Source: Candidatus Omnitrophota bacterium
GTDB lineage: Bacteria; Omnitrophota; Gorgyraeia; Zapsychrales; JANLHA01
DNA length: 64,000 bases
Reading direction: 5' to 3'
Assembly (NCBI GenBank): GCA_029560465.1
Contig: JAKQKX010000020.1
Location: 51,434 to 115,433, forward strand
Of this stretch, positions 8,488-56,338 are shown in pieces. Both the position numbers and the translations under genes were made by a program. Below the pieces are notes generated by a model, which saw nothing but the letters and a program-made list of their open reading frames with translations, did not search any database and was not told the DNA's origin. The number at the start of each line of letters is the position of its first letter. Positions within the stretch are counted from its first letter, which is position 1.

Positions 8488-9436
8488 TCAGGAACTCCTT
8501 AAAAGATATGTTAGGGATGCCGTCGACCGGCAGGGAATATTCAAACGGTTCATAGATATTGACAAAATTCATGCCCTGGTATTTCAGGATCTTTTCCAAA
8601 GCGGCAAACTCATGCGGCGGCCGCATGAAAGGGCGTTTATTCTCTTTAAAATTACCGCTGAAAGCCCGCCGCGCTTTTTTAAAAAATTTCCGGTAATGCG
8701 CCATGGATTTAAACGTGTAGCAAGCGGCATACTCCATGCTGCCCAGCATGGACATGTCCATCCCGAGGAAAAACACTTTATCAAAACCCATAAAATTCAG
8801 CACCGGGAACAACGCAATCGCCGAAGAATTCAGAAAACTGTAATCCTTAACGCGAGGCAGAGGCCCGCTTTCATCCAAGGCGTAATAATCCTGGAGATCA
8901 AAATCCCCGGCTGCCGGCCTGATCCCGCAGGTGTACACCGGATTGAGGCGGCAGAAGCTTTCTTTATAACTCTGGAAATTATCTTCTAAAGCCAGGCACG
9001 CTGTTTCCGGGAACCGGGATAACAATTCCAGCGGAGAATCCCGCAGGAACACGTCCGTCTTATAACGGAACCTCTTATGCACGCCGCGGTCCGGCCGGAA
9101 AGCCTCAAAGAACATCCGGAAGTTCTCTTTCAGGTACCGGTACTCGTCTTGGTATTCGTCCCGGATAAGGTCGGTTAAATCAATATCCGCCAAGAACGAT
9201 TGAAACACCACATGCTGAAACGCGTTGGATTTGCATTTTTCCAGATAAAACATAAGGTAAAAATCCGGCATCAAGTTCGCCTTCACAAAATACGGGGTCA
9301 GGGCCTTGCTTTCCAAAAACACCGTGACACGCCTGCGGTCAATACGTTCCAGAGGCACCCGGTTTTCAATGATCGAGGGGCCGCCGAGGATCACCAGCGC
9401 GTCGCGGCCGGCATAAGCGTTCTTTAATCGTTTCAT
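8474..9436 (-). CDS. DUF115 (MptE-like) protein, motility-accessory-factor (Maf)-like putative nonulosonic acid transferase
   Basis: ALVILGGPS-type motif near the N-terminus and a size of 320 aa. Position immediately downstream of pseI, as in Campylobacter/Helicobacter flagellin glycosylation loci. Confidence 0.5.
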   Translation of the reverse strand: MKRLKNAYAGRDALVILGGPSIIENRVPLERIDRRRVTVFLESKALTPYFVKANLMPDFYLMFYLEKCKSNAFQHVVFQSFLADIDLTDLIRDEYQDEYRYLKENFRMFFEAFRPDRGVHKRFRYKTDVFLRDSPLELLSRFPETACLALEDNFQSYKESFCRLNPVYTCGIRPAAGDFDLQDYYALDESGPLPRVKDYSFLNSSAIALFPVLNFMGFDKVFFLGMDMSMLGSMEYAACYTFKSMAHYRKFFKKARRAFSGNFKENKRPFMRPPHEFAALEKILKYQGMNFVNIYEPFEYSLPVDGIPNISFKEFLNGTC

Positions 9437-10485
9437 GACCCAGCGACCAGTTCCTTGGATAAAGGGGTGCCGCGGCGGATATCTTTCACCGCATGCCGCC
9501 CCATCACCTTACGCAGTTCTTTCGGCGGCAGCCCATAAGCCGGACGGATCGAGCGGATATTGTCAGCCGTGAATCGCTCGCCTCGTTTGATGTCCGCCAC
9601 AGCAAATAGGGACCGGCGGAACACCCGGCTCTTTCTTTCATTCTCAGTTTTAACATACGTCGCCGTCCCCAAAGCTTGTTCCGTAATCCGGATATTGTCA
9701 ACCAGCCTCTTAAACTCCCGCGGTTCCGTCGAAAAAAAGCTGTCCGGCGTTTTGTGCTTCCGGGTCAAGGTGAAATGTTTTTCGATCATGACCGCGCCCA
9801 GGCATACGGCAGCCACAGACGCGGCTAAAGTCAGAGTGTGATCCGAAAGCCCCACCGGCGCACGGAAACGCTTGGACATGTCCGGGATGACCTTCAAATT
9901 CATCTCCTGCGGTTGCGCCGGATAATTGCTCACGCATTTAAATAAAAGGATGTCTCGGGCCCCTCCCCGCCGGGCGGCCGTGACCGCGTCCTGAATCTCT
10001 TCCTTCTCCGCCATCCCTGTTGACAGGATAAGCGGTTTCCCGGTCCGGGCGGCGTGCGTGATCAAAGGGGTATCCACCAACTCAAAAGACGCGATTTTGT
10101 GTACCGGCACGTTAAGCGTTTCCAGGAAATCAACGGATGAGGCGTCAAATGCGGTCGCAAAAAACCCGAGGCCGACATCGTCCGCCACCGCTTTCAATTT
10201 TCTCAGCCAAGGCCAGGGGGTATACGCTTTTTGATAAAGCTGATACAGGGTCTGGCCGCCCCACTCTGGGTGGCGGATACGGAAATATTTATTACGGGCG
10301 TCAATCGTCATCGTGTCAGGAGTGTACGCCTGAAACTTAACCGCGTCCGCCCCGCATTCTTTCGCTTTGCGGATCATGGCCACCGCGCGCGGAAAACTTT
10401 GCCCGTGGTTCGCGGAAATCTCGGCGACGACATACACGGGGTATTGCCCCCCCACCAGCCTGTCCCCGATTTTAAACGATTTCAT
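9433..10485 (-). CDS. pseI: Pseudaminic acid synthase (NeuB family with SAF domain)
   Basis: VVAEISANHGQSF...AVKFQ NeuB motif; full length 350 aa with a C-terminal SAF-like region; located in the pse cluster. Confidence 0.85.
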   Translation of the reverse strand: MKSFKIGDRLVGGQYPVYVVAEISANHGQSFPRAVAMIRKAKECGADAVKFQAYTPDTMTIDARNKYFRIRHPEWGGQTLYQLYQKAYTPWPWLRKLKAVADDVGLGFFATAFDASSVDFLETLNVPVHKIASFELVDTPLITHAARTGKPLILSTGMAEKEEIQDAVTAARRGGARDILLFKCVSNYPAQPQEMNLKVIPDMSKRFRAPVGLSDHTLTLAASVAAVCLGAVMIEKHFTLTRKHKTPDSFFSTEPREFKRLVDNIRITEQALGTATYVKTENERKSRVFRRSLFAVADIKRGERFTADNIRSIRPAYGLPPKELRKVMGRHAVKDIRRGTPLSKELVAGS

Positions 10486-10959: not shown

Positions 10960-11636
10960 CGGATCGCCCTCACCACCTGAAAAGCTTCCGCGTACGCGCA
11001 ACCAGAGACGCTCCCCCACCGTTGCGCGATGGCCAATAAACTCTTTGCCGAACGGGGATGCGGCGCTGGCCGCATTTCCGAGCGGTAACACCGCATCGCC
11101 TTTATTTTCTGCACGATCGTCTCCTCAACATCAATATAAAGCGTCGGGTCAAAAGTCCGGGGATATGCCCATTCCGACGAGGACGGCACTTCAAACGCGT
11201 AAATTTCCCTGACCGGCTCTCCCTTCATGGGCCGGCAGGCGGTCATCACCGCGTTATACGTGATGCGGTGATCAATATTCAAATCACCCCAGTGATGCGT
11301 CAACACCGTGTCGGGCCGGACCTGCCGTTTGATCTCTTCCAGACGCTGGACAATTTCCAAAAGGGAAACCGTGTCCAGTTTGTTATCAGGAAGGTCAAGC
11401 TGATGCACGTCCTTCACGCCTAAGACCTGGTTGGCGGCCGTCATCTGCTCTTTCAATTTTTTCTTTTCGCGATCCTGTCTCCCGGAAGCGCCGTCGCTGT
11501 AACGCGCGGTCACCCCTTCTCCCAATATGACCGTCGCCACACTGTGCCCTTCTTTGACAAAACGGGCGACCGCCGCCCCGCACCCCAACACCTCATCATC
11601 CGGATGAGCCGCGACGACTAAAATTTTTTTCTTCAT
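10956..11636 (-). CDS. PIG-L/LmbE family N-acetyl-sugar deacetylase
   Basis: ILVVAAHPDDEVLG is the canonical HPDDE zinc-binding motif. Confidence 0.8.
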   Translation of the reverse strand: MKKKILVVAAHPDDEVLGCGAAVARFVKEGHSVATVILGEGVTARYSDGASGRQDREKKKLKEQMTAANQVLGVKDVHQLDLPDNKLDTVSLLEIVQRLEEIKRQVRPDTVLTHHWGDLNIDHRITYNAVMTACRPMKGEPVREIYAFEVPSSSEWAYPRTFDPTLYIDVEETIVQKIKAMRCYRSEMRPAPHPRSAKSLLAIAQRWGSVSGCAYAEAFQVVRAIR

Positions 11637-13344: not shown

Positions 13345-14073
13345 TTATAGACTCGCCTCGAGGGCCGCCTGATATTTCATATAAAATTCCGCCTTGAGAA
13401 AATCCTGTTCATGATCAATTTCCGTGGCATAGCGCTCATCATGAACAAGAAGCGCCACCCGGTCTCCCATGTAAGCGTGCACTTTCAAGACCCCGGCCGC
13501 CGCCAGCAAGGGACCTCTTCTTAAAACAATGACCGCCCCATCCAACAAATACAGCGTGGGCAAATCCTGCATCCGGAAAGCATGGGCCGATGGTATAAAA
13601 GGGCGGATCAACCCGCTTTCGGGGTCCAGGATTTTCATCCATTCCGGCCGCTGATCAATCGCGTAGGCGGTCGCCACCGCCGTGCCATCCTCACGGGACA
13701 CCAGTTTTTGCACCGCCTCATCGATCTCCCCATCCTTGCGGATGGGGACATTCGCCTGAAGGGCCACGACAATATCAAAAGTTTTTCCACCCGCCTCTTC
13801 TTCCGCCTGTAAGGCGTGGCGCAAAGCGTCGTCGAACGGGGATGTGTCCCGGGCCAACTCCGCCGGACGCATGATCACCTCCGCGCCATACCTTCCGGCA
13901 ACGGCGCCAATCTCATCATTATCAGTGGACACAACGACCTTATTGCAAAGCCGGCTCTTCAACGCCATCTCGACCGTATAAGCAATAAGAGGCTTGCCGC
14001 AGAGGTCCCGCACATGCTTCATCGGCGCGCGCCGGCTTCCGCCCCTGGCGGGGATCACGCATAGCACATTCAT
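13345..14073 (-). CDS. pseF: Pseudaminic acid cytidylyltransferase (CMP-Pse synthetase)
   Basis: MNVLCVIPARGGSRRAPMKHVRDLCGKPLIAYT is a CTP_transf_3 N-terminus. Confidence 0.8.
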   Translation of the reverse strand: MNVLCVIPARGGSRRAPMKHVRDLCGKPLIAYTVEMALKSRLCNKVVVSTDNDEIGAVAGRYGAEVIMRPAELARDTSPFDDALRHALQAEEEAGGKTFDIVVALQANVPIRKDGEIDEAVQKLVSREDGTAVATAYAIDQRPEWMKILDPESGLIRPFIPSAHAFRMQDLPTLYLLDGAVIVLRRGPLLAAAGVLKVHAYMGDRVALLVHDERYATEIDHEQDFLKAEFYMKYQAALEASL

Positions 14074-14089
14074 GAAATCTCCCTTATTT

Positions 14090-15247
14090 TCATGCCAACA
14101 CCTTGATTAACGTTTGCACAACATGCCGCACGTCGCATTTACGCAACTGCGGATAAAGCGGCAGGGTCATGGCCCGCTCATAATACTGCTCCGCAAAAGG
14201 GAACTGCCCGCGCCGGTAACCAAACCGCTTCTGGTAATACGGCTGAAGGTGAATCGGTATATAATGGACCTGCGGGAGAATCCCCTCCCGCAGCAACGCC
14301 TGAAACGTCCTGTCTCTTAACGCCGCGTCTTTAAACTGGATCACAAAAATATGCCATGCGGCCTTCACGTCTTTCTTTTCCACCGGGAGAATAAAACGCG
14401 AATCTTGCGCCAGCAAAGCATGATACGTCTCCACGTGCGTTCTGCGCTGGTCAAGAAACCGGTCCAGTTTTCTCAACTGGGAAACCCCCAACGCGCACTG
14501 CAGATCGGTGATCCGGTAGTTATACCCCAGGACCGGCATCTCGTAATACCACGGCCCGTCGTTCCTGGTTAATAAACGCGGGGTTTTCGTCATCCCGTGC
14601 GTGCGGAAAATCTGCAGCCGCTCATAAAGGTCTTTACGGTTCGTCAGGATGGCCCCGCCTTCTCCGGTCGTGATGTTCTTCACCGGGTGAAAACTGAACA
14701 CGGTCATATCCGAATACGCGCCGCCGCCGATTTTTTTCCCGCGGTATTCCGCCCCCAGCGCATGACAGGCGTCTTCGATCACCAGAAGCTTACGCTTCCG
14801 GGCGATACGCCGGATCGCCGCCATATCAGCGGGGTGCCCGGCGAAATGCACCGGGATCAGCGCCTTGGTCCTGGCGCTGATCTTTTTTTCGATCGCCGCA
14901 GGATCTATATTCACCGTCTCCTCATCAATATCCGCGAACACCGGCGTCCCTCCGCAGTACACGACACAGTTCGCCGAGGCCAAAAATGTCACCGGAGATG
15001 TGATGACTTCGTCTCCCGGAGCGATCCCCGCGGCCAGGCAGGCCATGTGAAGCGCCGCGGTCCCGTTCGACACGGCCACCGCGTATTTCGCGCCGGTGTA
15101 CCGGCACAGGGCCTCTTCAAACTCCCTGATCTTCGGCCCCTGGGACAGCCAGTCCGAACGGAGCACATCCGTGACCGCTTTGATGTCGTCCTTGGTGATC
15201 GTCTGCCGACCGTAAGAAATTTTGCGTTTCCTCATCATCTTAACCAT
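14090..15247 (-). CDS. pseC: DegT/DnrJ/EryC1 PLP-dependent aminotransferase (UDP-4-keto-6-deoxy-AltNAc aminotransferase)
   Basis: Strong similarity to sugar aminotransferases: GPKIREFEE, AVSNGTAALH, SFHPVKNITTGEGG. Confidence 0.85.
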   Translation of the reverse strand: MVKMMRKRKISYGRQTITKDDIKAVTDVLRSDWLSQGPKIREFEEALCRYTGAKYAVAVSNGTAALHMACLAAGIAPGDEVITSPVTFLASANCVVYCGGTPVFADIDEETVNIDPAAIEKKISARTKALIPVHFAGHPADMAAIRRIARKRKLLVIEDACHALGAEYRGKKIGGGAYSDMTVFSFHPVKNITTGEGGAILTNRKDLYERLQIFRTHGMTKTPRLLTRNDGPWYYEMPVLGYNYRITDLQCALGVSQLRKLDRFLDQRRTHVETYHALLAQDSRFILPVEKKDVKAAWHIFVIQFKDAALRDRTFQALLREGILPQVHYIPIHLQPYYQKRFGYRRGQFPFAEQYYERAMTLPLYPQLRKCDVRHVVQTLIKVLA

Positions 15248-16710: not shown

Positions 16711-17694
16711 TCAAAGGCCGGCAATGACCCGCTTTAATTGTTCAACCGTGAGCCACTGCTGGTTCGTGTCGCTGGTGTAAGCGAACCCCTCCGGGACAGA
16801 CGACAATTTATCATACTGGCAGTGAACCTCCTGTGTGTCAAAAAACTGCGGAAGAATGACATAATTGTCCCCGTCGATTTTCGTGTTACGGGATTCATCC
16901 CCGGAAATCAAGGTTTCATGGACTTTCTCCCCCGGGCGGATGCCGATTATTTTAAACGTGCAGTCCGGCTCGATGGCCCGGGCCAGATCAACGATCTTCA
17001 TGGAGGGAACCCGGGGGATAAAGACCTCCCCCCCTTCGGAAGTATCCAGGGCCTTGATAACAAGCTGGACGCACTGATCCAGCGTGATCCAGAAGCGGGT
17101 CATCCTTTCATCGGTGAGAGGAAACTCCCGGCATTTTTTGCTTTTCAAATTCAGGAACAACGGGATCACGCTCCCCCGGGACCCCATCACGTTCCCGTAA
17201 CGGACCGCGGAAAACTTGACCCTCCCGCCGGCGAAAGCGTTGGCGGCGATGAAAATTTTCTCCGCGACCAGCTTCGTCGCTCCGTAAAGGTTGACCGGGT
17301 TCACGGCCTTGTCGGTGGACAGCGCGACCACTTTTTTGACCCTGGCGTCAATCGCCGCGTTGACGATATTGTCGGCGCCGATGACGTTGGTCTTCACCGC
17401 TTCCGTCGGATTATATTCCAACGCCGGGACCTGCTTGAGCGCCGCGGCATGAACCACGTAATCGACCCCTTCGAAAGCCCGGTAAAGCCGGTCGCGGTCG
17501 CGGATGTCTCCGAGAAAATAACGGACCGGGTATTTCCGGTCCGGGAAAACCCGGGACATCTCGAACTGTTTAAACTCGTCCCGGCTGAAAATAATAAGCT
17601 TCTTCAACTGATATTTATTCAAAAGGACTTCTGTGAATTTCTTCCCGAACGACCCTGTCCCGCCGGTCACCAGCACCACTTTTTGATTCAACAT
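16711..17694 (-). CDS. pseB: UDP-N-acetylglucosamine 4,6-dehydratase (inverting)
   Basis: VLVTGGTGSFGKKF plus a CapD/FlaA1-like body. Start taken at MLNQKVV. Confidence 0.85.
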   Translation of the reverse strand: MLNQKVVLVTGGTGSFGKKFTEVLLNKYQLKKLIIFSRDEFKQFEMSRVFPDRKYPVRYFLGDIRDRDRLYRAFEGVDYVVHAAALKQVPALEYNPTEAVKTNVIGADNIVNAAIDARVKKVVALSTDKAVNPVNLYGATKLVAEKIFIAANAFAGGRVKFSAVRYGNVMGSRGSVIPLFLNLKSKKCREFPLTDERMTRFWITLDQCVQLVIKALDTSEGGEVFIPRVPSMKIVDLARAIEPDCTFKIIGIRPGEKVHETLISGDESRNTKIDGDNYVILPQFFDTQEVHCQYDKLSSVPEGFAYTSDTNQQWLTVEQLKRVIAGL

Positions 17695-17719
17695 GAGAAC
17701 TCCTTCATAAAATAACGCG

Positions 17720-18682
17720 TTATCCGATAGAAGATTTCCGTTTGAGTGCCCGGTACTCCGCGATCGTCCGCTCCACACCTTCGGCAAGCGAAATGCGCGG
17801 CGTAAAGCCCAACGCGGTCATCCGGTTTATATCCATGCATTTCCGGGCCATGCCGTCCGGCTTGCTTGTGTCCCACGCCAGCCGGCCCCGGAAACCCGCT
17901 TTCTGCGCGATCAATTCCGCCAGGGAACGGATCGTCACCTCTTTCCCGCTTCCCACATTAATAAATTCCGGAGAGTCATAGTGCTCCATCATATACACAA
18001 TCGCGGCCGCCGCATCATCCACGTGCAGGAATTCCCGGAGGGCGCTCCCGGTCCCCCAGAGGGGAACCGCGTCCCGGCCCTCATCCACCGCGTCAACCGT
18101 CTTTTTCACCAAAGCGGAAAGGACATGCGATTTATCCAAATCAAAGCAATCATTCGTCCCGTAGAGATTGCACGGCATCAGGCTGATCCCGGGAAACCCG
18201 TATTGCCGGTTATAATATTCCACCATCTTCAAACCCGCGATCTTGGCCAAAGCATACCCTTCGTTTGTCGGCTCCAAAGCGCCGGTCAACAGATAGTCCT
18301 CCTTCATGGGCTGCGGGCACTCCCTCGGGAAAATGCAGGAACTGCCCAAGAAACAAAATTTCCGGGCACCGTGGACATAAGCCTGATGAATAATATTATT
18401 TTGAATCACCAGGTTTTCATAAAGGAACTCCGCCTTATGTTCATTGTTGGCTTTAATCCCTCCCACCCGCGCTGCGGCGTCGATCACGATATCAGGTTTC
18501 TCCCGGGAGAAAAACTCTTTAACCGCTTCCGTATCCATCAAATCCAATTCCACCCGGGACCTTAAAACAAAATTGGAGAACCCCCTGCCTTTGAGCTGCC
18601 GCACAACGGCAGAACCGACCATGCCGTTATGCCCGGCCACAAAAATTTTATACTCCGGACGTATTTCAAATACCTTCTTCAC
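17720..18682 (-). CDS. fcl: GDP-L-fucose synthase (GDP-4-keto-6-deoxy-D-mannose 3,5-epimerase/4-reductase)
   Basis: IFVAGHNGMVGSA, YALAKIAGL and CNLYG are typical of Fcl. Confidence 0.8.
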   Translation of the reverse strand: MKKVFEIRPEYKIFVAGHNGMVGSAVVRQLKGRGFSNFVLRSRVELDLMDTEAVKEFFSREKPDIVIDAAARVGGIKANNEHKAEFLYENLVIQNNIIHQAYVHGARKFCFLGSSCIFPRECPQPMKEDYLLTGALEPTNEGYALAKIAGLKMVEYYNRQYGFPGISLMPCNLYGTNDCFDLDKSHVLSALVKKTVDAVDEGRDAVPLWGTGSALREFLHVDDAAAAIVYMMEHYDSPEFINVGSGKEVTIRSLAELIAQKAGFRGRLAWDTSKPDGMARKCMDINRMTALGFTPRISLAEGVERTIAEYRALKRKSSIG

Positions 18683-30104: not shown

Positions 30105-30779
30105 TCAAAACATTAAACGTCCGGCTTTAACAAAATAATATTCCGCCAAAATAATAAGCGCCAACGCGCACGCTTGTTTTATCCGGTTAAGCCACGGCCC
30201 GGATTTCGGCAGCTGGCTCAATAACCCGCTGAACGTCCCGACAAGAATAAGCGAAGCGCCCACGCCATACGAAAAGACAAAAAGCAGGCTGATCGCATGG
30301 AGAAGGTTTTGTTTGGAAGCCACGTAAAGCAGCACCGTGCCCAAGACCGGGGCCGTGCAGGGGCCGACAACCAGGCCACCAACCCCTCCCAGCAGAAAGA
30401 CTGACCAAAGATTCCTGAGTTTGAGGCCCGCGGGCCGGTGAAGCGCCAGGCCCGGCAGAGGAATAACATCCAGCATGACCATCGCGAAAACCAGCAAAAC
30501 ATTCCCGACGGTCAAAAACACAACCGGGGAATTCTGGAACTGGCCGAAAACTTTCCCGGTTAAAGCGGCCGCCACCCCCAGCCCGCAATAGGTCATAGCC
30601 ACCCCAAGGACATACACCAGTGAAATCACGAAGCCCATGAGTTTGGTGCCCCGTGTGTTCACGCCGGCAATGATACTCGCCACCACCGGGACCGCCGGGT
30701 AAACACACGGCGTAAAACTGACGGCCACCCCGGCCCCGAACACCAAAAAATAATCAAACACATTCCCTTGAAGTTGCAT
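30105..30779 (-). CDS. ccdA: Cytochrome c-type biogenesis / thiol-disulfide transporter CcdA (DsbD transmembrane domain family)
   Basis: The two conserved Cys motifs SFTPCVYP and GPCTAP lie in TM helices. Confidence 0.8.
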   Translation of the reverse strand: MQLQGNVFDYFLVFGAGVAVSFTPCVYPAVPVVASIIAGVNTRGTKLMGFVISLVYVLGVAMTYCGLGVAAALTGKVFGQFQNSPVVFLTVGNVLLVFAMVMLDVIPLPGLALHRPAGLKLRNLWSVFLLGGVGGLVVGPCTAPVLGTVLLYVASKQNLLHAISLLFVFSYGVGASLILVGTFSGLLSQLPKSGPWLNRIKQACALALIILAEYYFVKAGRLMF

Positions 30780-30824
30780 CGCCCTCCCCGCGCGGCTCAA
30801 GAAACCAGGCTATCAGAGCCAGTC

Positions 30825-42878: not shown

Positions 42879-43748
42879 CTACTGTTTCACCGAAAAACCG
42901 TCTTTGGTGATAACCACTCGCCGGGCAGACCGGTCCGAGCGGCCAAGCTCTCCCAGGACTTTCCCGTTCACTTCGTATTCAAGAGAATGGATATTCTTTC
43001 CCGAAAGTTCGATGGACTGCTCGGCCTGCCACGTTTCAGTCGCCCCACTGTTTAAAATCGACTGAAAAACCATGCTCCCGTCGACTTTAACCTGTAACCA
43101 CCCGCTCTTTTTCGCCTTCACCGTCAAACGGACTTCTTTAGGCTGCGGCGAGGATTTTTCTTCCTTAGGGGGAGTTTCCTTCTTGGGGGCCGCTGTCGGC
43201 GCGGGGGCCACGGTCTTTTTCTCTTCGGCTTTCTTCTCCTCCCCTGATAGCGTCTTTTTATCCGTGACTTCAGGGGCGATGGCGGGGACAGCGACGGAAG
43301 AAGCAGCCATTTTTTTCTGGCGGTGATCCCGGACGCAACCGACAATCCTCAAAATCAGGAAAACGGAAAGCAAGCCAACCAGGCCTTTCAGCAAAAGCTG
43401 CTGATTCTCCCTGGTAAGATACTTTTGAAAATCAAGGCGGATGAAAGGCTCCGGAGGCAAAGAAACCGGACGATCTTCCTTAACTCTTTCGGAAGCCTTT
43501 TCTGGCACCGGGGACGGCTCTAAAACCTGATTGATATCCACACCCAAATACTGCGCATACATCTTCATAAATCCCCTGATATAAAAAGGCGAAAGCGTCC
43601 GGATCGTGTACCCTTCTTCAATGGCTTTAAGAACATCCATCGGGATTTTCGTTGATTCATGAACCGTCGCCAACGGCAAGCCCTGGGCTTCCCTAGCCTC
43701 CTTGAAAATTTCCCCTCGCGGACGATTATGCTGTCTGGCGTCAGCCAT
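42879..43748 (-). CDS. rodZ: RodZ-like cytoskeleton protein (HTH_25 + TM + Pro/Lys-rich linker + DUF4115)
   Basis: N-terminal XRE-type HTH (GEIFKEAREAQGLPLATVHESTKIP), a central TM helix, and a PAPTAAPKKETPPKEE linker. Confidence 0.7.
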   Translation of the reverse strand: MADARQHNRPRGEIFKEAREAQGLPLATVHESTKIPMDVLKAIEEGYTIRTLSPFYIRGFMKMYAQYLGVDINQVLEPSPVPEKASERVKEDRPVSLPPEPFIRLDFQKYLTRENQQLLLKGLVGLLSVFLILRIVGCVRDHRQKKMAASSVAVPAIAPEVTDKKTLSGEEKKAEEKKTVAPAPTAAPKKETPPKEEKSSPQPKEVRLTVKAKKSGWLQVKVDGSMVFQSILNSGATETWQAEQSIELSGKNIHSLEYEVNGKVLGELGRSDRSARRVVITKDGFSVKQ

Positions 43749-45994
43749 TAGGCTTCACTCCCATTCTGGTTAAGGTGTTCCATGAGCCACTCCTCGCGGT
43801 CGACGAGGATGTCCCGGGGTTTGCTGCCGCAATACGGCCCGACAAGCCCATTTTGTTCCATCATATCAATAAGGCGGGCCGCACGGGTGTACCCAAGCCG
43901 CATGCGCCGCTGTAAAATCGAAACAGAAGCCTGGTTGGTTTCAATCACCAACCGGACAGCTTCATCATAAAGCTCATCCTTGTTCCCCTCGCCTGCCTCT
44001 CCCGAAGCTTTTTGGGACGTTAAAATCGTGTCGTCATAGGTCGGGCTCTGCTGTTCTTTGATAAAATTAATCACGCTATGCACTTCTTCATCCGCCACGA
44101 AACTGCATTGGCCGCGTGTCGGTTTGGCGTCTCCCGGCTTCATAAAAAGCATGTCGCCTTTTCCCAACAGCGTCTCGGCGCCATTCATATCCAGCACCGT
44201 GCGGGAATCGACTTTCGAAGCCACCTTAAAAGAAATCCTGGCCGGGAAATTCGCCTTAATCACGCCCGTAATAACATCGACGGAAGGCCTCTGGGTCGCG
44301 AGGATCAGATGGATGCCCACGGCCCGCGACAACTGAGCCAATCGGGTGATGGCGCTCTCCACGGTCTTGGCCGACACCTGCATTAAGTCCGCCAGCTCAT
44401 CGATAATAATGATGATGTACGGCAGACTCAATCCCCGGGCGTGGTAGGCCTTGATATTCCTCACCCCTGTCTTGGACAACAGCTGATAACGATTTTCCAT
44501 CTCCCCGACCACCCAATTCAACGCGGGGGAAACTTTTTTATGATCCGTCACCGCCGGGCATAACATATGCGGGATGTCATTATACTGTGTCAACTCTACC
44601 ATTTTCGGGTCGACCATAAGGAATTTCACCTCATCAGGGGTGGCGTTAAATAACACAGACATAATCAGGCTGTTGACACAAACGGTTTTCCCCGCGCCCG
44701 TGGTCCCGGCGATCAAAAGATGCGGCATATCTCCCAAATCTGCCACGATCGGGTGTCCAGAAATGTCTTTCCCGATCGCAAGCATTAGTTTCGATTTTGA
44801 CTTCTGAAAATTGCTGCCCTGCAAAACTTCTTTCAGAAAGACGGCCGCTGTCGAGCTGTTGGGCACCTCAATGCCCACACGGTTCTTCCCGGGGATAGGG
44901 GCCACGATGCGCACAGCCGCCGCCCGCATGGCTAAGGCAATATCATCTGATAACGTGGTAATCCGCTGAATCTTCACCCCCGGGGCGGGTTCCAGCTCAT
45001 AGCGGGTGATCACCGGCCCCCGCTCAATATCCGCCACCCTGGCGTTGACATTAAAATCACTTAAAGTGTTTTCCAATGTCCTGGCCCCCTCTTCCAAGTC
45101 GCTCTGCAGCCTTGTTGTCGAAACCTGCGGGGGGGAAGCTAAAAGATCCAGGCTAGGGATAATATATTCTCCAACAATTTTCGGCGGCTCCGGGGCTTCA
45201 GCGCCCTGCGGCTCTTTGGTTTTAGCAATACGTATCCGCGGCTTGGCCCGGCCAGACATCTCCTCGCAAAATTCAGGATCTTCCTGCGCTGCCTCGCATT
45301 CGTCCTCTTCCCCGTATCCTTCCTCCGGATCCCTGCGAGGGCTTTTCTTGGGTTTCTCGTTGAGTGATGGGTTGATTTTAAACCGTGGCTGGGGCGGCTT
45401 GGTAAGTTTCTGGGCCTTACGTTTTTCCAGCCATGCGTAGGCCCCGTCCCGGCAACAAAACAAAACAGAACGGCAGCCATCCATTAACTTAAAAAGTAAC
45501 GGTGACACAAGGAATTCTCCTGTCAGGACAAGCGTCATCGCTCCCAATGTCAGCAGAATAATATACGCGCCGGTCGGGCTTAAATACCGAACCAAATAGT
45601 CCGATGTAATAAAACCAATCATCCCCCCCCGTTCAAAACGAGCGACGCTCATTCCGTCTCCAGCCATAGACAAGAGGGCGCTTATAACGCAAAACAGGAC
45701 AAAAGCAATAAATACCTTCGAGAACGTGAAATCCAATTCCTGTTGAGAGAATTTATTCCAACTCCAAAAGAAAAGAAAGATTACCAGACAATAGGCGCTA
45801 TAGCCAAAGGCAAAAAAAAGCGCTCCGGCCGCATATGCGCCCACCACTCCGACAAGATTTTTAACTGGGATATACGGTTGGGAACTGTACCAAGGCAAAT
45901 CATCCGGGACAAATGAAATGAGGCTGGCCAAAAGAATTAACCCTATGGCAAGAACAATGATCCCCTGGATTTCATTGAAAAGGTCCTTCTTCAT
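43748..45994 (-). CDS. ftsK: DNA translocase FtsK/SpoIIIE
   Basis: N-terminal TM domain, acidic linker, Walker A LIAGTTGAGKTV, C-terminal gamma winged-helix. Confidence 0.9.
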   Translation of the reverse strand: MKKDLFNEIQGIIVLAIGLILLASLISFVPDDLPWYSSQPYIPVKNLVGVVGAYAAGALFFAFGYSAYCLVIFLFFWSWNKFSQQELDFTFSKVFIAFVLFCVISALLSMAGDGMSVARFERGGMIGFITSDYLVRYLSPTGAYIILLTLGAMTLVLTGEFLVSPLLFKLMDGCRSVLFCCRDGAYAWLEKRKAQKLTKPPQPRFKINPSLNEKPKKSPRRDPEEGYGEEDECEAAQEDPEFCEEMSGRAKPRIRIAKTKEPQGAEAPEPPKIVGEYIIPSLDLLASPPQVSTTRLQSDLEEGARTLENTLSDFNVNARVADIERGPVITRYELEPAPGVKIQRITTLSDDIALAMRAAAVRIVAPIPGKNRVGIEVPNSSTAAVFLKEVLQGSNFQKSKSKLMLAIGKDISGHPIVADLGDMPHLLIAGTTGAGKTVCVNSLIMSVLFNATPDEVKFLMVDPKMVELTQYNDIPHMLCPAVTDHKKVSPALNWVVGEMENRYQLLSKTGVRNIKAYHARGLSLPYIIIIIDELADLMQVSAKTVESAITRLAQLSRAVGIHLILATQRPSVDVITGVIKANFPARISFKVASKVDSRTVLDMNGAETLLGKGDMLFMKPGDAKPTRGQCSFVADEEVHSVINFIKEQQSPTYDDTILTSQKASGEAGEGNKDELYDEAVRLVIETNQASVSILQRRMRLGYTRAARLIDMMEQNGLVGPYCGSKPRDILVDREEWLMEHLNQNGSEA

Positions 45995-49910: not shown

Positions 49911-51809
49911 TTAACGCAGGAGGCGAGGATAAAGCAAAGAATGAATATGGGAATCCGGGATATCACGAGCTAACCCGTGGACATGCCCCAGGGCCCTTCG
50001 AAACCGCTGTTCATTAAGAACACGCAATGGAACAGGGATGGCGTTAGGCAGGAAGGTTGTGTCCTGGACAAGGTCCGCCTTAGACATAAACAGGAATCCC
50101 TGCTTGATACTCCCCGAGAAAGACTCTACGGCGCGCTGCACTTGTCTTAATTTATCCGAATCCGGCACACAGCTGGTCACAGAGGGCTCACATGCAGGAT
50201 CGGAAAAGTACTCCCGGCCCCACAAAACCGCGCCCACCGCTTCAATCGCCTTCGGGTTATCCGGCTCTAAATCAATAGTATAAGGAACAATTGTTTTAAA
50301 CCCCGCCGCAAACAGCGTGTTGCGGAAGACCAACCAAGACGTTTTCGATAAAGACCCGGCCTTTCCCGGGAGGAAAGATGCCGAGGAGTCAACCACCGCG
50401 AACGCCTGGGGAGCCATATGCTCAGCGATGAGCCGGAAAAATTCCAGAGTGTAATACTGCCCCGCGCTAAAATCAACAGCATCGGGATAATGGATATAAA
50501 CAGCGTCAAAAACCTCTTTATTGTTTTTCAAAAAACGAAACGCCTCTTGAGAAACGATGCGAATCCGAGGATCCTTTAAGGCGCCGGCCATGATGCTGTA
50601 ACTCATCATCGGATCCTCCTCCAACAGAGACAACATCGAATCATCAACCCCAGCCAAAGTAATCTGCTCTATCCCAGAATATTTCACAAGTTCCTTCAAA
50701 ATAAAAGGGCCCGCGCGCCCTAACACTAAAACCCGCCTGGGAACATCCCCCCGGAGGGAAACCGGGACATGAACGCAATACTCCTGAAAAAACTCATCCC
50801 ACTGGGAATTCATAATTAATTGATGGTTCAGAAAGAAAAAATACCCCCAAGGATAGGCCGGGTCTTCCAAATACTTTTTGCTGTAAGACGTTAACAGCCA
50901 AATATCCAAAGGGTGAGGAGAAAACGGGACGACATCAACATACCCGTTAGCCACAAGATGACGGCTCACGTCCGGCCAGGATTCTTTGACCCGTAATATA
51001 TCGGATAACTCTCGGACGGGCTCCACAAAATATGTCTTTTTCAAAAAATACTGTTCTAAAAGAGAAACCCGAATCATCGCGATGATGATAAAAGCAAGCA
51101 AGGCGCTCGCGATTATAATGTGCCTCTTCTGGTTTACGGCCTGGTTTCCCAAGAGCAAGATCAAAAGCCACATGATAGTCAAGACGGACAATCCTAATCC
51201 AAATCCCAGCAGCAGCAAATCCCTGTGCGCAAAGGGTAACAACGTGGCCAACAAACCCGCGGCAAAATACCCCAGGAACTGAAATCTCGCGTGACGCTCC
51301 CAGGGCTTTTGGGAGTCTTCTGCTCTCCAGTTCCAGCACGCGATCCGCGCCAGGAGTCCTCCGGACAAGCGGCCGAGTGCGAAGACAAGCCCGAATAACC
51401 CCAAAGAAAAAACAATCCGGCCCGCCAAGATGCCAAAACGGTCTAGAAAATATAAATTTATAAAATACAAAATATAAAGCACCGGAATGGCGGCCGCGAC
51501 AACCGCACTAAAAAAAAGCCCGGGCATAATAACAGCTTCCCGGGCCTGAGATATTTTCCGAAGTCCTCTCATGAACCCAACAGCATGAATGCCAAGATAC
51601 ACCCCGACCAGCAAACTAAACCAGAACATCTCCTGATGAAAAAACAAACTGAGGATTTGCGCCATCAACAATACAGCACAAAAGCTGCAGGCAGAAAGGA
51701 TAAAAATAATTATAGATGTCATAAAAAACGGCCTCCCCACAAAATATCCCGGGACAAAACAAGTCTCGGTCTTCGTATTCCCCTCTCTCAAAATATTCAT
51801 AAACGCCAT
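49911..51809 (-). CDS. Polytopic membrane protein fused to a spermidine-synthase-like (polyamine aminopropyltransferase fold) C-terminal domain with a degenerate glycine motif
   Basis: Eight to ten N-terminal TM helices, then VLVLGRAGPFILKEL...ITLAGVDDS resembling the VLVIGGGDGG...EID pattern of SpeE. Start set at MAFMNIL because the upstream part of the track ORF is an out-of-frame read of the Thr-Pro repeat. Confidence 0.5.
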   Translation of the reverse strand: MAFMNILREGNTKTETCFVPGYFVGRPFFMTSIIIFILSACSFCAVLLMAQILSLFFHQEMFWFSLLVGVYLGIHAVGFMRGLRKISQAREAVIMPGLFFSAVVAAAIPVLYILYFINLYFLDRFGILAGRIVFSLGLFGLVFALGRLSGGLLARIACWNWRAEDSQKPWERHARFQFLGYFAAGLLATLLPFAHRDLLLLGFGLGLSVLTIMWLLILLLGNQAVNQKRHIIIASALLAFIIIAMIRVSLLEQYFLKKTYFVEPVRELSDILRVKESWPDVSRHLVANGYVDVVPFSPHPLDIWLLTSYSKKYLEDPAYPWGYFFFLNHQLIMNSQWDEFFQEYCVHVPVSLRGDVPRRVLVLGRAGPFILKELVKYSGIEQITLAGVDDSMLSLLEEDPMMSYSIMAGALKDPRIRIVSQEAFRFLKNNKEVFDAVYIHYPDAVDFSAGQYYTLEFFRLIAEHMAPQAFAVVDSSASFLPGKAGSLSKTSWLVFRNTLFAAGFKTIVPYTIDLEPDNPKAIEAVGAVLWGREYFSDPACEPSVTSCVPDSDKLRQVQRAVESFSGSIKQGFLFMSKADLVQDTTFLPNAIPVPLRVLNEQRFRRALGHVHGLARDIPDSHIHSLLYPRLLR

Positions 51810-51945
51810 GGAGCACAAAAATTCAAAAAAGGATTCCGCGCTTGGGTAACATTTTAATATATTCCATGCGTTTTGCAAGAAAAGATGATCCGGAATCCCA
51901 AAACGGGAATGACGGCAGGACACGCCCCCAAAAGGACAGGCGCTC

Positions 51946-53295
51946 CTAAGGCGTCGGGGTCGGGGTGTTCGTCGGAGTTGGCGTGTTCGTTGGCGCAGGC
52001 GTCGGCGTATTCGTTGGGGTCGGGGTATTTGTCGGCGTTGGCGTGACCGTTGGGGTCGGGGTATTTGTCGGCGTCGGCGTGACCGTTGGAGTCGGCGTTG
52101 GGGTCGGGGTAACCGTTGACGTTGGGGTCGGCGTTGGGGTTGGCGTTGGGGTCGGCGTCGGCGTCGGTGTTGGGGTCGGCGTACAGCTCGGGACCACACA
52201 CGCAATCGTCGAAGGCGGCTGAGTCGCTGAATTACAATAGCTGTTCCCGACGGTCCCCCCGGTCATATCCTCACACCAAACCAGACGGTCACAGGTTCCC
52301 GGAGCGCCGCCGGTCGGGCTGCAGGCGCCATTACAAGGCCCACAGGCGCCGACATCCCATGTGCACCACCCGCAATCGGCATAACAGGCGTCACAATCTT
52401 CAGTCGCGGGGTAATTACAGGTTCCGTCCCCGCACAGTGACCCGCAATCCCAGGAGCAATTCGAACTATTTTCGCCGGCACAACTATCACAGACAAAATT
52501 AGGACATACCGCCGTACAATCCGCTGGACAAGCGACAGTCCCTCCCCCACCGCAAAAAGATTCCTGGCTGGTCGTACAGACCATATCCCCGCAACACGGC
52601 TGGCACGCCACGCAGGACAAACAGGCCCCTGGAGCGGTACAATCAAAAGAAGGATGCCCGCAAACAACCGGGCAGTCAGCCGCGCAACTTAACGGATCCT
52701 CATTACAGGTCCCATCCCCGCAACACGGTGAACACGCCGGGCAAATGCCGCATTGCCCGGCACAGTTAAACCCTGGCTCCCCGCAAGCCGGGGTTCCGCA
52801 ATCCCCGGGGCAGGAGAGATGCGTTTCCCCTCCGCTACACGATCCATCCCCACAGCACGGCTGGCAGGCCGCGCAACCCGCACAGTTCGCAGGAAGGTCA
52901 CAATTAAACGTCGGGTCTCCGCATTCTGGGGGGCAGTCGGTCGGGCAGTTTGTCTTATCTTCCACATAAGGAATGTCGGGCCTATTATCACAAGTGCCGT
53001 TCCCGCAACACGGGTCGCATGCCGAGCACGACACACAACCCTCAACATCAAAACTGAGTCTGACCTGCATACAATAGACAGGATCAGGGCAGGTCATGGT
53101 TACAAAGCAGTTTTCATCAGTACATATCTTTGCGGTTTCAGCGTTGATTTGATTCAAGGACTGTTTAAAACTCCCCATAACCGCGCCGCGGAAAGGGCCA
53201 AACGGGCCGATAAAAGATAGGATGGCAACAACAACTACCGCAACAAGCAGTAGATATTCGATAATTTGTTGTGCTGTTTTGTTGACAACTTTCAT
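51946..53295 (-). CDS. Flp/Fap-type pilin-like N-terminus fused to a large cysteine-rich tandem-repeat extracellular domain and a C-terminal Thr-Pro repeat tail
   Basis: N-terminal [25 protein letters not shown] matches the Flp G/A-x4-E-Y hydrophobic motif. About five copies of CxxCxPCCGDGxC...E...CPxDC follow. The C-terminus is (TP)n/(TPTN)n. Confidence 0.55.
51950..52195. repeat. Tandem hexanucleotide-based repeat (GGBGTY)n encoding the Thr-Pro tail; low-complexity DNA that creates a spurious Arg/Pro/Gln-rich ORF in another frame
   Basis: Visible directly as gtcggggtcggggt... repeated for ~250 bp. Confidence 0.7.
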
Positions 53296-53443
53296 ATCAA
53301 GATTTTAGAAAAGACCGCCAATAAAAGACAAAATTAGTATATCATATTCTTTTATAAATTATAAAAAAATATTATTAATCAAAAATTTATCTCCGGAATG
53401 AATTGGGCAAAACAACCCCCAAAGAGTTGAATCCGCAAAAAAC

Positions 53444-53662
53444 TTACGGATTAAGAATTGTCAGAGTGCCAGCGGCGTCTCCCCAAACCATGCCGGCGAC
53501 ATCCACCATCCCCTGCACCGGAGCGTTAAGAGAACGTTCATACTCAGTCCGGAACTCACCACCAGGGCCCATAAACACAAAAATTACTACGATGACAATC
53601 GTAAACAGCAACAAAAACTCAATCGTATGCTGGCCAGAATTATTATGAACTGTTTTTAACAT
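53444..53662 (-). CDS. flp: Flp/Fap family type IVb pilin
   Basis: MLKTVHNNSGQHTIEFLLLFTIVIVVIFVF has the G-x4-E-F/Y processing and hydrophobic motif. Size is ~72 aa. Confidence 0.55.
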   Translation of the reverse strand: MLKTVHNNSGQHTIEFLLLFTIVIVVIFVFMGPGGEFRTEYERSLNAPVQGMVDVAGMVWGDAAGTLTILNP

Positions 53663-53797
53663 TTTATCCCCCTTATACACCTATATCATATTTTAAATGA
53701 AGATAAAGGAGACAAAATAAAATTTTGGTGCTTAAAACTATTAAATTCATATGTTTAGCTAAATTGGTCTCAACCCGGGATAGAAAGCCTCCAGCGA

Positions 53798-54220
53798 TTA
53801 AGCATGCTCCCTGGCCTTTAATATACGCTCCGTCATCTCTTCTTCATACGCTCTTTCAATTTTTACAAGCTCTCCGGCCCCAAGAAACGACCGGATGGCT
53901 TTCTTGACCGCGTCCAACCGTCTATGAAGATACCAATAATCTGCCTTAAGCTCTCCCTTCCGCCCCTCTTCATATTTATTCACATACGCACTTTTTCCTT
54001 TATGTTTCATATACTGCTGAAAGGCAATAATTTTAATATGATATTTCTTATCTTTCAATTCCGGGGCCTTTTTAAGCTCTTTCAATAAAAAATCATCCAC
54101 GTCCAGTTGCGTGAATTTACGGTCTATCCGTTCCAAGTCTTCTTTGGTTGTCTTATAGCACCATAATAAATACCGCCTGTACAAATTTTTTTCTTCCGGA
54201 GTCATCTTTTTTTTCCGCAT
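53798..54220 (-). CDS. Hypothetical lysine-rich protein
   Basis: 140-aa ORF. No motif recognised. Confidence 0.3.
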   Translation of the reverse strand: MRKKKMTPEEKNLYRRYLLWCYKTTKEDLERIDRKFTQLDVDDFLLKELKKAPELKDKKYHIKIIAFQQYMKHKGKSAYVNKYEEGRKGELKADYWYLHRRLDAVKKAIRSFLGAGELVKIERAYEEEMTERILKAREHA

Positions 54221-54256: not shown

Positions 54257-56338
54257 TTAAAATGCGGGAGTCATGATACGGCTCATCGTTCTATGAACGA
54301 CAAAAGTCCCCCCGTTCTGAAAAACAACATCCCCCAAGGCGCGTAACTGGTCCGACCGCAGGTCCGGATACGCTTCCCGTTCCTTGTCTCCCACAAAAAT
54401 ATAATCCACCATATACTTCTCAAACATTCTGGCAGACGCTAAAGAAAACGGCTGTTCATACATGCTTTTCACGTCCTCAATCCGTGGGGCCGGGATATCA
54501 TACGACCCACGCCAGAGCCACTCGTGAACCGGCCATCCGACAACGGTGGGAAGCCCCGTAAACGCGGAAACCCGGCTAAAATCGGAATAACTCGTTCCCA
54601 CGGCCTCCAATATAACCGGCTGGCCTGAAACATGAGCATTCAGCCATAATATGCCCGCATAATCTTCCGGATATTTTTCCTTAAGCCAGTTCAGTCCGTT
54701 GAGTCCCTTAAAGTTCTTAAATCCGTACCGGTCCCGATATCCAAAATAAGGAAATATCAAAAGCAAGCACACCGTCAGGGAAATCACCAGCGTCAAGGCG
54801 GACTGGATTCCCTTCCGGGACTTGTTATCCGGGATAAAGTCTTTGAGCCAGATAAACCCCGCCACCCAACCCGTCGCAATTCCCATAAAAATAAAACTCT
54901 GCAGAGTAAATTTAAACATTGTATTCGCCCGGGGATGCTCGGGATAAATGTCCTTCACATAAATGATTTCCGGGATGAGAATTAACACCCACGCAGCGAT
55001 GATGAGCGCGAGGATAAAACCTAACACGCCCTGTTTTTTCCTCCGCAAGGCACTGGCGACAGCGAAAAGCGAACGATTCTGATGATCCGCGACCCAAAAC
55101 GCGATCAAGCTGAGGATTCCTATCCCGCCCCACACAACCAACAGGCGCCAAAAATCCGAGCTGTCTTCTACCCACCTGACCCCACTTGAAATCGACCGAA
55201 AATGTGTCCACCATAAGGATGAAACCCCGGCTGCCACGGCCCCAATGAGCGTCAAGGATGTGCACACGTGCCCAAAACGGGATGGATAAAACAGGGTGAG
55301 GGTCATCCCGCACAAACACAACAAAAGCGCATACACCCCGCCCGACCAGGCGCTCGTCATAAAACAAACCCCTAACATCATGCCCGTGGCCAAAGCCCGG
55401 GGATAAATCTTCCAAGCCCTTTCGGAAACAAGGACCCCATGATACCAAAGAAAAACACACAACAACAAACTGACCGCCAAAGGGAAATCCCAGACATGGG
55501 CGTGCAGATCACCGACGATCAACGAATAAGACGGGAATTCATGGATAGTCTGCGGGATAAACCGGGTGGCGTCCGGATACCAGTAGCCTTTCCACCCGTG
55601 ATTCTTGATCCCATACCAAATCGCGTGGGTGTTCCCGGCAAACGCGACCAAAACAGCAGCCACCGCGCTACCCCATATAAGCGGTTTTCCGATGTCCTCC
55701 GTTTCCGTACTCTTATAAATCAGGTTCAAAACCACGCTGAACGTTTCCGCCATAAACAATCCCATAATAAACCCCAGCAGTAAGTTATAACTATACGGCA
55801 ACTCCAGGGACCAGTACCGGGTCATCACGGATCCGAGAAAGTGGCCGAACGTATAATAATTCATGGTTTCACCGGCAAACCACATATCCAAGACAGGGAG
55901 CGTCGGGGCCCGCAAATATGAAGCCATCAGGCCGGCGTCCATAAATTTCTCTAAATCATTGATGTCCGGGCCGAACCCCCGGGCCACACAAAGGAAAAAG
56001 AAGCCAGCCGCAAACAAAATCTCTTCCGCCATCAGCCACTTCCAGCGCTCTTGCAAAAACAGGACAATCTCATCTTTGTTCAAATGAAAGACCGCAATGC
56101 TCAACACGGCAAAAAGCAAGAAAACAACGAACAATCCCCCCTGGTTATTGACCGGAAAACCGAAATGGGCCAAGACCCACACCGGCAAAGCCAGGACAAG
56201 CCATGTCAGCAGACGGCCAAAAGCCCACCCGGCGTCAAACAACGTATTGCGGAGCCGGGTAATTAAAATCGGCATCGCAAAAAGCTGCAGGAGCGCTGTC
56301 ATAAACCACGCAAAAACAATCAACCCCAGATCCTTCAT
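54257..56338 (-). CDS. DUF2298-type (YYY-domain) large membrane protein, putative GT-C-like glycosyltransferase
   Basis: Polytopic membrane protein whose C-terminal region GLPTVVGWPVHEWLWRG is typical of the DUF2298/TIGR03662 family. Start taken at MKDLGLIV. Confidence 0.5.
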   Translation of the reverse strand: MKDLGLIVFAWFMTALLQLFAMPILITRLRNTLFDAGWAFGRLLTWLVLALPVWVLAHFGFPVNNQGGLFVVFLLFAVLSIAVFHLNKDEIVLFLQERWKWLMAEEILFAAGFFFLCVARGFGPDINDLEKFMDAGLMASYLRAPTLPVLDMWFAGETMNYYTFGHFLGSVMTRYWSLELPYSYNLLLGFIMGLFMAETFSVVLNLIYKSTETEDIGKPLIWGSAVAAVLVAFAGNTHAIWYGIKNHGWKGYWYPDATRFIPQTIHEFPSYSLIVGDLHAHVWDFPLAVSLLLCVFLWYHGVLVSERAWKIYPRALATGMMLGVCFMTSAWSGGVYALLLCLCGMTLTLFYPSRFGHVCTSLTLIGAVAAGVSSLWWTHFRSISSGVRWVEDSSDFWRLLVVWGGIGILSLIAFWVADHQNRSLFAVASALRRKKQGVLGFILALIIAAWVLILIPEIIYVKDIYPEHPRANTMFKFTLQSFIFMGIATGWVAGFIWLKDFIPDNKSRKGIQSALTLVISLTVCLLLIFPYFGYRDRYGFKNFKGLNGLNWLKEKYPEDYAGILWLNAHVSGQPVILEAVGTSYSDFSRVSAFTGLPTVVGWPVHEWLWRGSYDIPAPRIEDVKSMYEQPFSLASARMFEKYMVDYIFVGDKEREAYPDLRSDQLRALGDVVFQNGGTFVVHRTMSRIMTPAF

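Follow-up and report, generated by a model that had tools for sequence, protein, structure and literature searches.

In a stretch of 64,000 nucleotides from a Candidatus Omnitrophota bacterium (GenBank assembly GCA_029560465.1, contig JAKQKX010000020.1, positions 51,434 to 115,433), to which we refer as the window and whose own numbering is used below, the minus strand encodes a cysteine-rich protein of 449 amino acids (51946–53295, stop codon included) that begins like a small pilin and continues into a long extension. In our assessment, the chances are about evenly balanced that this protein is a modular pilin of a class III or Flp-like type, with a helix-only carrier that displays adhesion modules. 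The hydrophobic helix would insert the precursor into the inner membrane, an A24-type prepilin peptidase would cleave it between Ala 8 and Gln 9, and the mature helix would pack into a type IV (Tad-like) filament consisting mostly of small subunits such as the 72-residue protein encoded by the neighbouring gene. Because a bulky acidic extension of 40 kDa would be unable to fit every position of a filament, the large subunit would be present at low abundance, probably at the filament tip, and its disulfide-stabilized modules, its thrombospondin type-1 repeat (TSR) and a mucin-like tail, probably O-glycosylated, would be presented for attachment to surfaces or to host or prey cells. This model fits the established principle of type IV pilins with grafted adhesion modules (PMC8179133) and the attachment-dependent lifestyle proposed for Omnitrophota (PMC10066038).

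The ATG of the gene was taken as a fixed start because a stop codon is found three codons upstream. From the N- to the C-terminus, the translated protein is organized into a predicted leader peptide (residues 1–8, 53272–53295), a pilin-like module (residues 9–55, 53131–53271), a linker (residues 56–84, 53044–53130) whose four cysteines at positions 58, 63, 69 and 75 are kept in orthologues, five disulfide-rich modules (residues 85–310, 52366–53043), a TSR-like domain (residues 311–371, 52183–52365) and a (TP)n/(TPTN)n tail (residues 372–449, 51949–52182), all on the minus strand. It contains 62 cysteines (13.8% of its residues) and is acidic, with 40 Asp and Glu residues compared to 9 Lys and Arg. 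Searches of Pfam and NCBIfam with the full-length sequence assigned no family.

Orthologues of the gene are intact in four other Candidatus Omnitrophota assemblies, namely L001 (450 residues), L008 (449 residues), L009 (437 residues, on the complete chromosome OY759724.1) and L028, and in an alignment of the window protein with those of L001, L008 and L009 each sequence contains 62 cysteines, which are aligned throughout. Between the window and L008 the ratio of non-synonymous to synonymous substitution rates (dN/dS) is 0.09 at a dS of about 1, and selection on the gene is strongly purifying. The closest database entries carry the name Candidatus Omnitrophota, and the matching contigs include assemblies of activated-sludge metagenomes. 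Public gene calls in L001, L002 and L005 omit the 449-residue open reading frame (ORF) and contain instead an ORF of 115 residues that reads the Thr/Pro repeat in a different frame, which helps to explain why databases hold only a truncated copy (P0001) and a few relatives. This spurious 'PNADPN' ORF is located at 51854–52201 (minus strand) in the window and at 11465–11812 in L001 and L002. An ORF of 764 residues (49911–52205, minus strand) was rejected as an overlapping coding sequence, since its first 132 codons ('RRPQ') are an alternative frame of the same repeat; these codons spuriously extend the gene downstream of the large one, which codes for a spermidine-synthase-like membrane protein with a likely true start at 51809. 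That the large ORF would itself be an artefact created by the low-complexity repeat, as might be suspected from its omission by gene callers in three assemblies and from the absence of a Shine-Dalgarno sequence, is ruled out by the conservation data. Besides the intact frame in five assemblies, the aligned cysteines and the low dN/dS, a conserved promoter is found upstream and full-length homologues exist (P0015 and P0016), and we attach practically no probability to such an artefact.

The class III-type N-terminus and its family

The first 55 residues of the large protein are homologous to an Omnitrophota family of stand-alone proteins of 56–79 residues, whose signature comprises a basic leader, the motif [AG]/Q-x-x-[IV]-E-[YF], with the slash marking the predicted processing site, a hydrophobic helix of about 20 residues and a GPxGPF[RK] turn. 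In the large protein, these features appear as the basic leader and start of the mature chain MKVVNKTA/QQIIEY, followed by a hydrophobic run, the sequence GPFGPFR and an amphipathic stretch. In a phmmer search against 1.8 billion representative proteins, stand-alone proteins of 57–72 residues match residues 4–57, and the whole N-terminus is shared with the large relatives P0015 (1400 residues) and P0016 (677 residues). Another large member (P0002/L007, 580 residues) came from the first protein search, and genome scans added those at L012 (1158 residues), L013 (537 and 643 residues, in tandem), L015 (858 residues) and L016 (674 residues). Altogether, there are at least ten further large family members of 437–1400 residues, with differing Cys-rich C-terminal extensions. 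At L012 (9983–13459), L013 (9938–13524), L015 (10001–12577) and L016 (9636–11660) these extensions are quite different, and the one at L012 contains many CG[DN]G-x6-8-GE-x-CD units that by eye appear as Myxococcus-type repeats, for which none of the Pfam models matched. In genome and metagenome scans, the pattern [AG]QQ[IM][IV]EY[LI]L is matched solely in records that are titled Omnitrophota, mislabelled as 'Planctomycetales' or untitled; the metagenome scan contributed six more loci and no new context.

An alignment of 23 sequences (A1) shows Ala or Gly at position –1 in every row and invariant residues at Gln +1, Glu +5, Pro +23 and Gly +25, with GPxG being near-invariant in A1 and in a further alignment (A3). 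From this conservation we predict a prepilin-type cut between Ala 8 and Gln 9, and the N-terminus of the large protein, as judged from its sequence, carries the design of a class III (prepilin) signal. In an AlphaFold2 model of residues 1–371, calculated from the single sequence (pLDDT 42), the only confident part is a helix encompassing residues 5–28 (pLDDT 75–82). Of the first-pass description of the ORF, the length of 449 residues is confirmed, and a pilin-type N-terminus is supported by the class III signature and by the homology of about 55 residues to stand-alone proteins of pilin size.

Among Pfam families, PF04021 (Class_IIIsignal) matches 14 of the 23 family members at E≤1, with a best E-value of 1.3e-5, and PF04964 (Flp_Fap) matches 3 of the 23, with a best E-value of 1.1e-4. 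No N_methyl family is found among the Pfam matches (E≤1) to the 23 N-termini, where position +1 is Gln and not Phe or Met, and a search of NCBIfam with 27 N-termini returned only noise. In the PDB, the family profile has a single pilin-like match, to the Tad pilin PilA from C. crescentus (8u1k, 45 residues), with a non-significant E-value of 0.75 and an alignment that pairs Glu 5–Tyr 6 and the post-helix G..R.A. The position of the family between PF04021 and PF04964 is what one would anticipate, should Tad pilins have evolved from archaeal pili, as has been proposed (PMC10710030, citing Denise et al. 2019).

A second, small pilin-like gene (53444–53662, minus strand; ATG at 53662, ribosome binding site AAGGGGG) is located 148 bp upstream of the large one. 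It encodes 72 residues starting with MLKTVHNNSG/QHTIEFLLLF, of which 62 would remain in the predicted mature protein, compared to about 45–62 in the stand-alone relatives. Its orthologues are 69–100% identical and carry the JGI name 'UPF0333 family', P0010 has a precomputed PF04021 match, and the window protein itself matches PF04021 with an E-value of 6.1e-4 and 20.1 bits (cut-off 23.7). Small and large genes are paired in L001, L008, L009, L027 and L028. In the first-pass annotation, this gene had been described as a canonical, bona fide Flp pilin of 72 residues located 150 bp upstream; its size and, within 2 bp, its distance are as stated, but the qualification as canonical or bona fide is not supported by the test proposed there, as PF04964 is not matched at E≤1.

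Two relatives are found in surroundings of pilin-like genes. P0089 (L025, 985–5503) is part of an operon of eight consecutive genes, all with class III-type N-termini ([GA]/Q-x-x-x-E-Y followed by a hydrophobic helix), whose products of 56, 72, 116, 115, 146, 135, 106 and 536 residues are not annotated by Pfam. By analogy, this layout is that of a cluster of major and minor pilins, and the operon may encode all pilins of a filament yet to be described. P0099, the weakest and most distant match of the profile, lies in a true Tad locus (L026), where it belongs to a pair of Flp genes with TadE (PF07811) and RcpC (PF16976) as neighbours, and its processing site G/QNTVEY is of the same G/Q-x-x-[IV]-E-Y type as in the family.

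The described features also bear on a different explanation, namely that the large protein is an ordinary Sec-secreted Cys-rich surface or periplasmic protein, whose resemblance to a pilin at its signal is coincidental. A positively charged n-region preceding a hydrophobic stretch is also typical of Sec signals, and the CGDGxC unit contained in its modules is also found where the signal peptide is an ordinary one, as in P0003, which has a trypsin domain, and P0004–P0005. Yet the hydrophobic run is, with about 21 residues, of transmembrane length and has at its start a buried Glu that is conserved, it is not followed by an AxA-type site, and the block of 55 residues is kept as a unit across unrelated C-termini and as free-standing genes. 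Its basic leader, the Ala or Gly at –1, Gln +1 and Glu +5, followed by Tyr or Phe and a helix of about 20 residues, set the N-terminus apart from an ordinary Sec signal, and we consider this explanation very improbable.

Cysteine modules, TSR-like domain and Thr/Pro tail

In the Cys-rich region, the regular expression C..C.PCCG[DN][GM].C has four matches, at residues 90, 141, 185 and 228, and a fifth, degenerate unit contains CGDGTC at residue 288. Upon shuffling of the region with preserved composition, at least one match to the shorter expression C..C.PCCG[DN] is found in 13 of 20,000 cases. When tabulated, the modules show a period of 40–52 residues, with 8–11 cysteines per module. The first-pass annotation had counted about five repeats, which agrees with four exact copies and a degenerate one, but had put their length at roughly 30 residues, which is too short. 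Their core has the form CG[DN]GxC-x3-5-E-x4-C-x2-DC and is in four of the modules preceded by the prefix C..C..C.PC. An alignment of 36 instances of this core shows four cysteines and a Gly that are invariant, and conservation of the Glu and the Asp in at least 90%.

The core, a unit of about 22 residues with four cysteines, is also present in P0002–P0005, where it is fused to trypsin (P0003) and other domains, and its presence in unrelated secreted proteins makes it a widespread extracellular building block. Compared to this CGDGxC-x-E-x-C-x2-DC mini-repeat, four of the window units are enlarged to 40–52 residues with 8–11 cysteines by the C..C..C.PC prefix. No model for the mini-repeat was found in the copy of Pfam used, and a sequence search of the PDB with the Cys-rich region gave no meaningful match. 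The TIGR02232-like Cys repeats for which the first-pass annotation had proposed a search were not detected, since neither TIGR02232 nor DUF4215 appears at E≤1 in the scans of the whole protein against Pfam and NCBIfam, a weak negative as the same scans missed the TSR and were not run on isolated modules. The structure prediction proposed at the same time led no further. An AlphaFold2 model of a single module of 47 residues, based on the repeat alignment of 36 rows, has a pLDDT of 65 and contains, apart from one short helix, no secondary structure, and a Foldseek search of the PDB with this model yielded zero matches. When the window is compared with the strain of L001, which is elsewhere near-identical, 21 of 36 differences are concentrated in the first module (residues 85–124, 52924–53043, minus strand), comprising 11 non-synonymous and 7 synonymous changes and 3 indel columns, a patch that looks like a mosaic or a recombination event in one surface module.

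The domain following these modules was recognized in searches with isolated segments. Residues 311–371 match the Pfam family PF19030 over its entire profile (positions 1–55 of 55) with an E-value of 2.3e-4 and 21.8 bits (cut-off 23.8), and a profile of five orthologous and paralogous sequences matches a TSP1 domain of THSD7A (PDB 8oxr_A, positions 5–59 of 63) with an E-value of 1.3e-9. The domain keeps the conserved cysteines and the central R-x-V-x-C. Another member of the family, P0084, combines the family N-terminus with three clear TSP1 domains (PF19030, E=2e-28). On the basis of these profile matches, the last Cys domain of the large protein is a thrombospondin type-1 repeat. It belongs with TSRs such as those of THSD7A and ADAMTS, the match to THSD7A covering 55 residues and including the conserved cysteines, but has a single Trp in the WxxW layer, scores 2 bits below the Pfam cut-off and is found in a bacterial context. 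In eukaryotes, TSRs are classical modules for adhesion. The role as adhesin suggested in the first-pass annotation gains support from this domain, which had been overlooked there, and from its threefold presence in P0084. In a search of the literature, we found no description of a TSR-bearing pilin.

The tail comprises 78 residues, including 38 Thr, 30 Pro, 5 Asn and 3 Val, and is encoded by a tandem repeat with periods of 6, 18, 24 and 36 nucleotides that was detected by TRF at 51950–52182. The Thr-Pro tail noted in the first-pass annotation is thus present, though shorter than the 90 residues given there. Its reading frame is kept in L008 and L009 even though synonymous divergence is saturated. 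By its resemblance to mucin-like linkers that carry O-glycans, this tail would probably be O-glycosylated.

Filament subunit or membrane anchor

Several observations weigh against the assignment of the large protein to a filament. Pfam searches with 46 ORFs of the 64-kb window revealed no prepilin peptidase, secretion ATPase, platform protein, secretin or tad genes, regular expressions for the T2SSE Walker-A and the A24 GxGDxK motifs found none in about 24 loci, each with up to 10 kb on either side, and Pfam searches of ten neighbours of large members identified no pilus genes and instead housekeeping functions such as SMC, GGDEF and ROK. The tadV/cpaA and tadABC genes, whose search had been proposed in the first-pass annotation, were accordingly located neither in the window nor beside the family members examined. 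In favour of a filament, Tad systems are reported for most Velamenicoccia and at lower frequency for other classes of Omnitrophota, and T4a pili for nearly all members of the phylum (PMC10066038). The small version of the gene fills a phylum-wide syntenic slot upstream of rpsO-pnp-ftsK-rodZ-miaB-pgsA-pgpA, and a placement at rpsO-pnp-ftsK-rodZ looks, from gene order, more like that of a core envelope function than of an accessory adhesin. The Pfam pilin matches of the window proteins are sub-threshold and those of the family mostly below the gathering cut-off; for the N-terminus of the large protein PF04021 is not matched and neither window protein reaches any Pfam pilin cut-off. The family also shows, within GPxGP at positions +22 to +26, a Pro that is conserved at position +23 of the mature chain, and Tad pilins are described as being without Pro 22 (PMC10710030). 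Finally, the structure predictions, as models, are uninformative.

With some of these observations in mind, the large protein could be regarded as a membrane-anchored envelope glycoprotein that would never become part of a filament and whose class III-like N-terminus, whether cleaved or not, would serve only as an inner-membrane tether; the small stand-alone relatives would then be small membrane proteins with a core role in the envelope. Archaeal substrate-binding proteins, which carry class III signals, provide a parallel. The absence of pilus machinery near any family member examined, the sub-threshold level of all Pfam pilin matches, the housekeeping slot by rpsO-pnp-ftsK-rodZ, which is shared with a partner gene of 140 residues across distant Omnitrophota, and the recurrence beside polytopic enzymes related to glycans (a DUF2298 protein in the window and a YfhO protein downstream of P0098 at L023) would all agree with such an anchor. 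However, genes of orphan pilins at a distance from their machinery are common, a plain tether would have no need of an Ala or Gly at –1 and of an invariant Gln +1 and Glu +5 at fixed spacing, and P0089 resides within the cluster of eight genes with class III signals. Moreover, mature stand-alone peptides of about 45–60 residues, consisting of a hydrophobic helix and an amphipathic tail, correspond to the design of Tad pilins (PMC10710030). We regard such an anchor as the main rival of the modular pilin and as somewhat less probable than it.

The partner gene (53798–54220, minus strand) encodes a charged protein of 140 residues that is 48–52% identical to the product of a pilin-adjacent gene in L007, L010, L018, L019 and L021, and for which no relatives were found in Pfam or the PDB. 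The polytopic DUF2298 protein is encoded two genes upstream (54257–56338, minus strand, likely start 56338; PF10060, E=4e-76), and the same gene is a neighbour in L001–L006. We infer that it might act as a glycosyltransferase partner of the pilin-like protein; also nearby are genes for a weakly PMT-like protein and for GT2 enzymes. At L023 (10001–12851), the family member P0098 with 63 residues is located 4 bp upstream of a YfhO-family membrane enzyme of 884 residues, in the surroundings of a glycosylation cluster with GT2, DegT, GT4 and CDP-alcohol-transferase genes. The pairs of P0098 with YfhO and of the window genes with DUF2298 suggest a recurrent link between small family proteins and polytopic glycan-modifying enzymes.

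Each of the two pilin-like genes of the window appears to have its own expression signal. A promoter scan and a five-way alignment of intergenic regions point to an extended –10-like element ATATGATATACT about 50 nucleotides upstream of the large gene (53336–53347, minus strand), and the 10-mer ATATGATATA is found upstream of each of the genes (53338–53347 and 53682–53691, minus strand), these being its two copies in the window compared to 0.05 expected. In L001, L008, L009 and L028, the sequence TATG[AT]TATACT is located 50–53 nucleotides upstream of the large gene, in a spacer that has otherwise diverged. The 10-mer forms part of a TGnTATAcT extended –10-like element that orthologous loci share. 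It was dismissed as site of a specific regulator, since in other lineages, too, most genes of the family have a comparable TGnTATAnT element upstream, and it is thus more simply read as a putative extended –10 promoter of each gene.

At a distance of 30–50 kb from the large gene, the window contains a large cluster for the biosynthesis of nonulosonic acids of the pseudaminic or legionaminic type (285–22676, minus strand). It includes genes for NeuB (9433–10485) and a shorter NeuB (3691–4422), a CMP-sugar cytidylyltransferase (13345–14073), a DegT aminotransferase (14090–15247) and a PseB-like dehydratase (16711–17787), all on the minus strand, together with a PIG-L deacetylase, a GNAT protein, a formyltransferase, a B12-radical-SAM enzyme, GT2 enzymes, methyltransferases and an ABC exporter. 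Sugars of this kind commonly decorate flagellins and pilins. A transmembrane thiol-disulfide transporter of the DsbD/CcdA type (30105–30800, minus strand; PF02683, E=2e-39) is encoded 22 kb away and may be relevant for the folding of a protein with 62 cysteines. The ftsK gene, which in the window is an intact ORF of 748 residues (43748–45994), is called as three genes of 455, 119–141 and 119–144 residues in L001 and L002 (17671–19913 in L001), probably due to frameshifts in these assemblies.

Relation to known pilins and implications

The closest counterparts of the N-terminal unit are Flp or Tad (type IVc) pilins such as C. crescentus PilA (8u1k) and Aggregatibacter Flp1, with which the family shares the basic leader, the [GA]/xxxxE[YF] motif and the hydrophobic helix. 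The window sites KTA/QQIIEY and NSG/QHTIEF fit the processing motif G/XXXXEY, and the stand-alone relatives match these pilins in their mature size of about 45–62 residues and in their organization without a globular domain. In contrast to Flp pilins, neither window protein matches PF04964 at E≤1, both are encoded apart from tad genes within the 64-kb window, and the large protein, with 441 residues after the predicted cut, lies outside the mature Flp size of 40–60 residues. To our knowledge, major Flp pilins never carry an extension of 390 residues as found in the 449-residue member. A further difference concerns the GPxGP sequence described above and the Pro 22 that Tad pilins are reported to be without (PMC10710030). 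With archaeal class III pilins (PF04021, UPF0333), whose Pfam family fits the group best, the family has Gln +1 and Glu +5 (QxSxE) in common, but the organism is bacterial and its scores are mostly below the cut-off. Archaeal pilins usually contain a globular C-terminal domain, whereas Tad pilins, which are related to them, are helix-only (PMC10710030).

With respect to its overall architecture, the large protein conforms to the layout of modular pilins, in which a class III signal and a pilin module are fused to domains that are not specific to pili. In PMC8179133, this layout is described for S. sanguinis PilB, with a vWA domain, and PilC, with a lectin domain, and for CofB of ETEC, which all combine an N-terminal class III signal and a pilin module with bulky ligand-binding cargo; as in the large protein, their cargo modules also occur in eukaryotic adhesion proteins, and a location at the filament tip has been proposed. 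The modular pilins surveyed in that work are all of the N-methyl (T4a/T4b) class, with a globular pilin module and a signal of the N-methylation type (IPR012902), whereas the protein described here, which is known from sequence, would have a helix-only carrier of Flp size. Cargo made up of CGDGxC repeats, a TSR and a Thr/Pro tail is not named in the passages of PMC8179133 considered here, which do not include its dataset of 264 architectures. The view of the first-pass annotation that no equivalent architecture was known has consequently to be revised, as modular type IV pilins are described in this source and at least ten more large family members are found in Omnitrophota. While the grafting of adhesion modules onto pilins is thus already known as a general idea, three aspects appear to be new, namely the Flp- or archaeal-like, helix-only class of the carrier, the combination of CGDGxC repeats, TSR and Thr/Pro tail as cargo, and the restriction to one phylum of a family with highly variable Cys-rich extensions.

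Beyond the single protein, we tentatively suggest that Omnitrophota possess lineage-specific helix-only pilins that have repeatedly become carriers of grafted, disulfide-knotted adhesion modules resembling those of eukaryotes, including TSRs, CGDGxC repeats and mucin-like tails, although we would not yet favour this generalization. As gene callers often miss large members, with the 449-residue gene skipped in three assemblies, surveys of protein databases are bound to undercount the family. Modular pilins account for the acquisition of new binding functions by simple filaments, and a helix-only carrier of Flp size with a TSR and Cys-knot repeats would extend this principle to the Tad- or archaeal-like class. 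If true, pilins without a globular head would be able to display cargo of 40–150 kDa, and the family would constitute host- or prey-attachment adhesins of ultra-small, host-dependent bacteria, thereby providing Omnitrophota, an uncultured phylum thought to attach to other cells (PMC10066038), with a concrete candidate adhesin.

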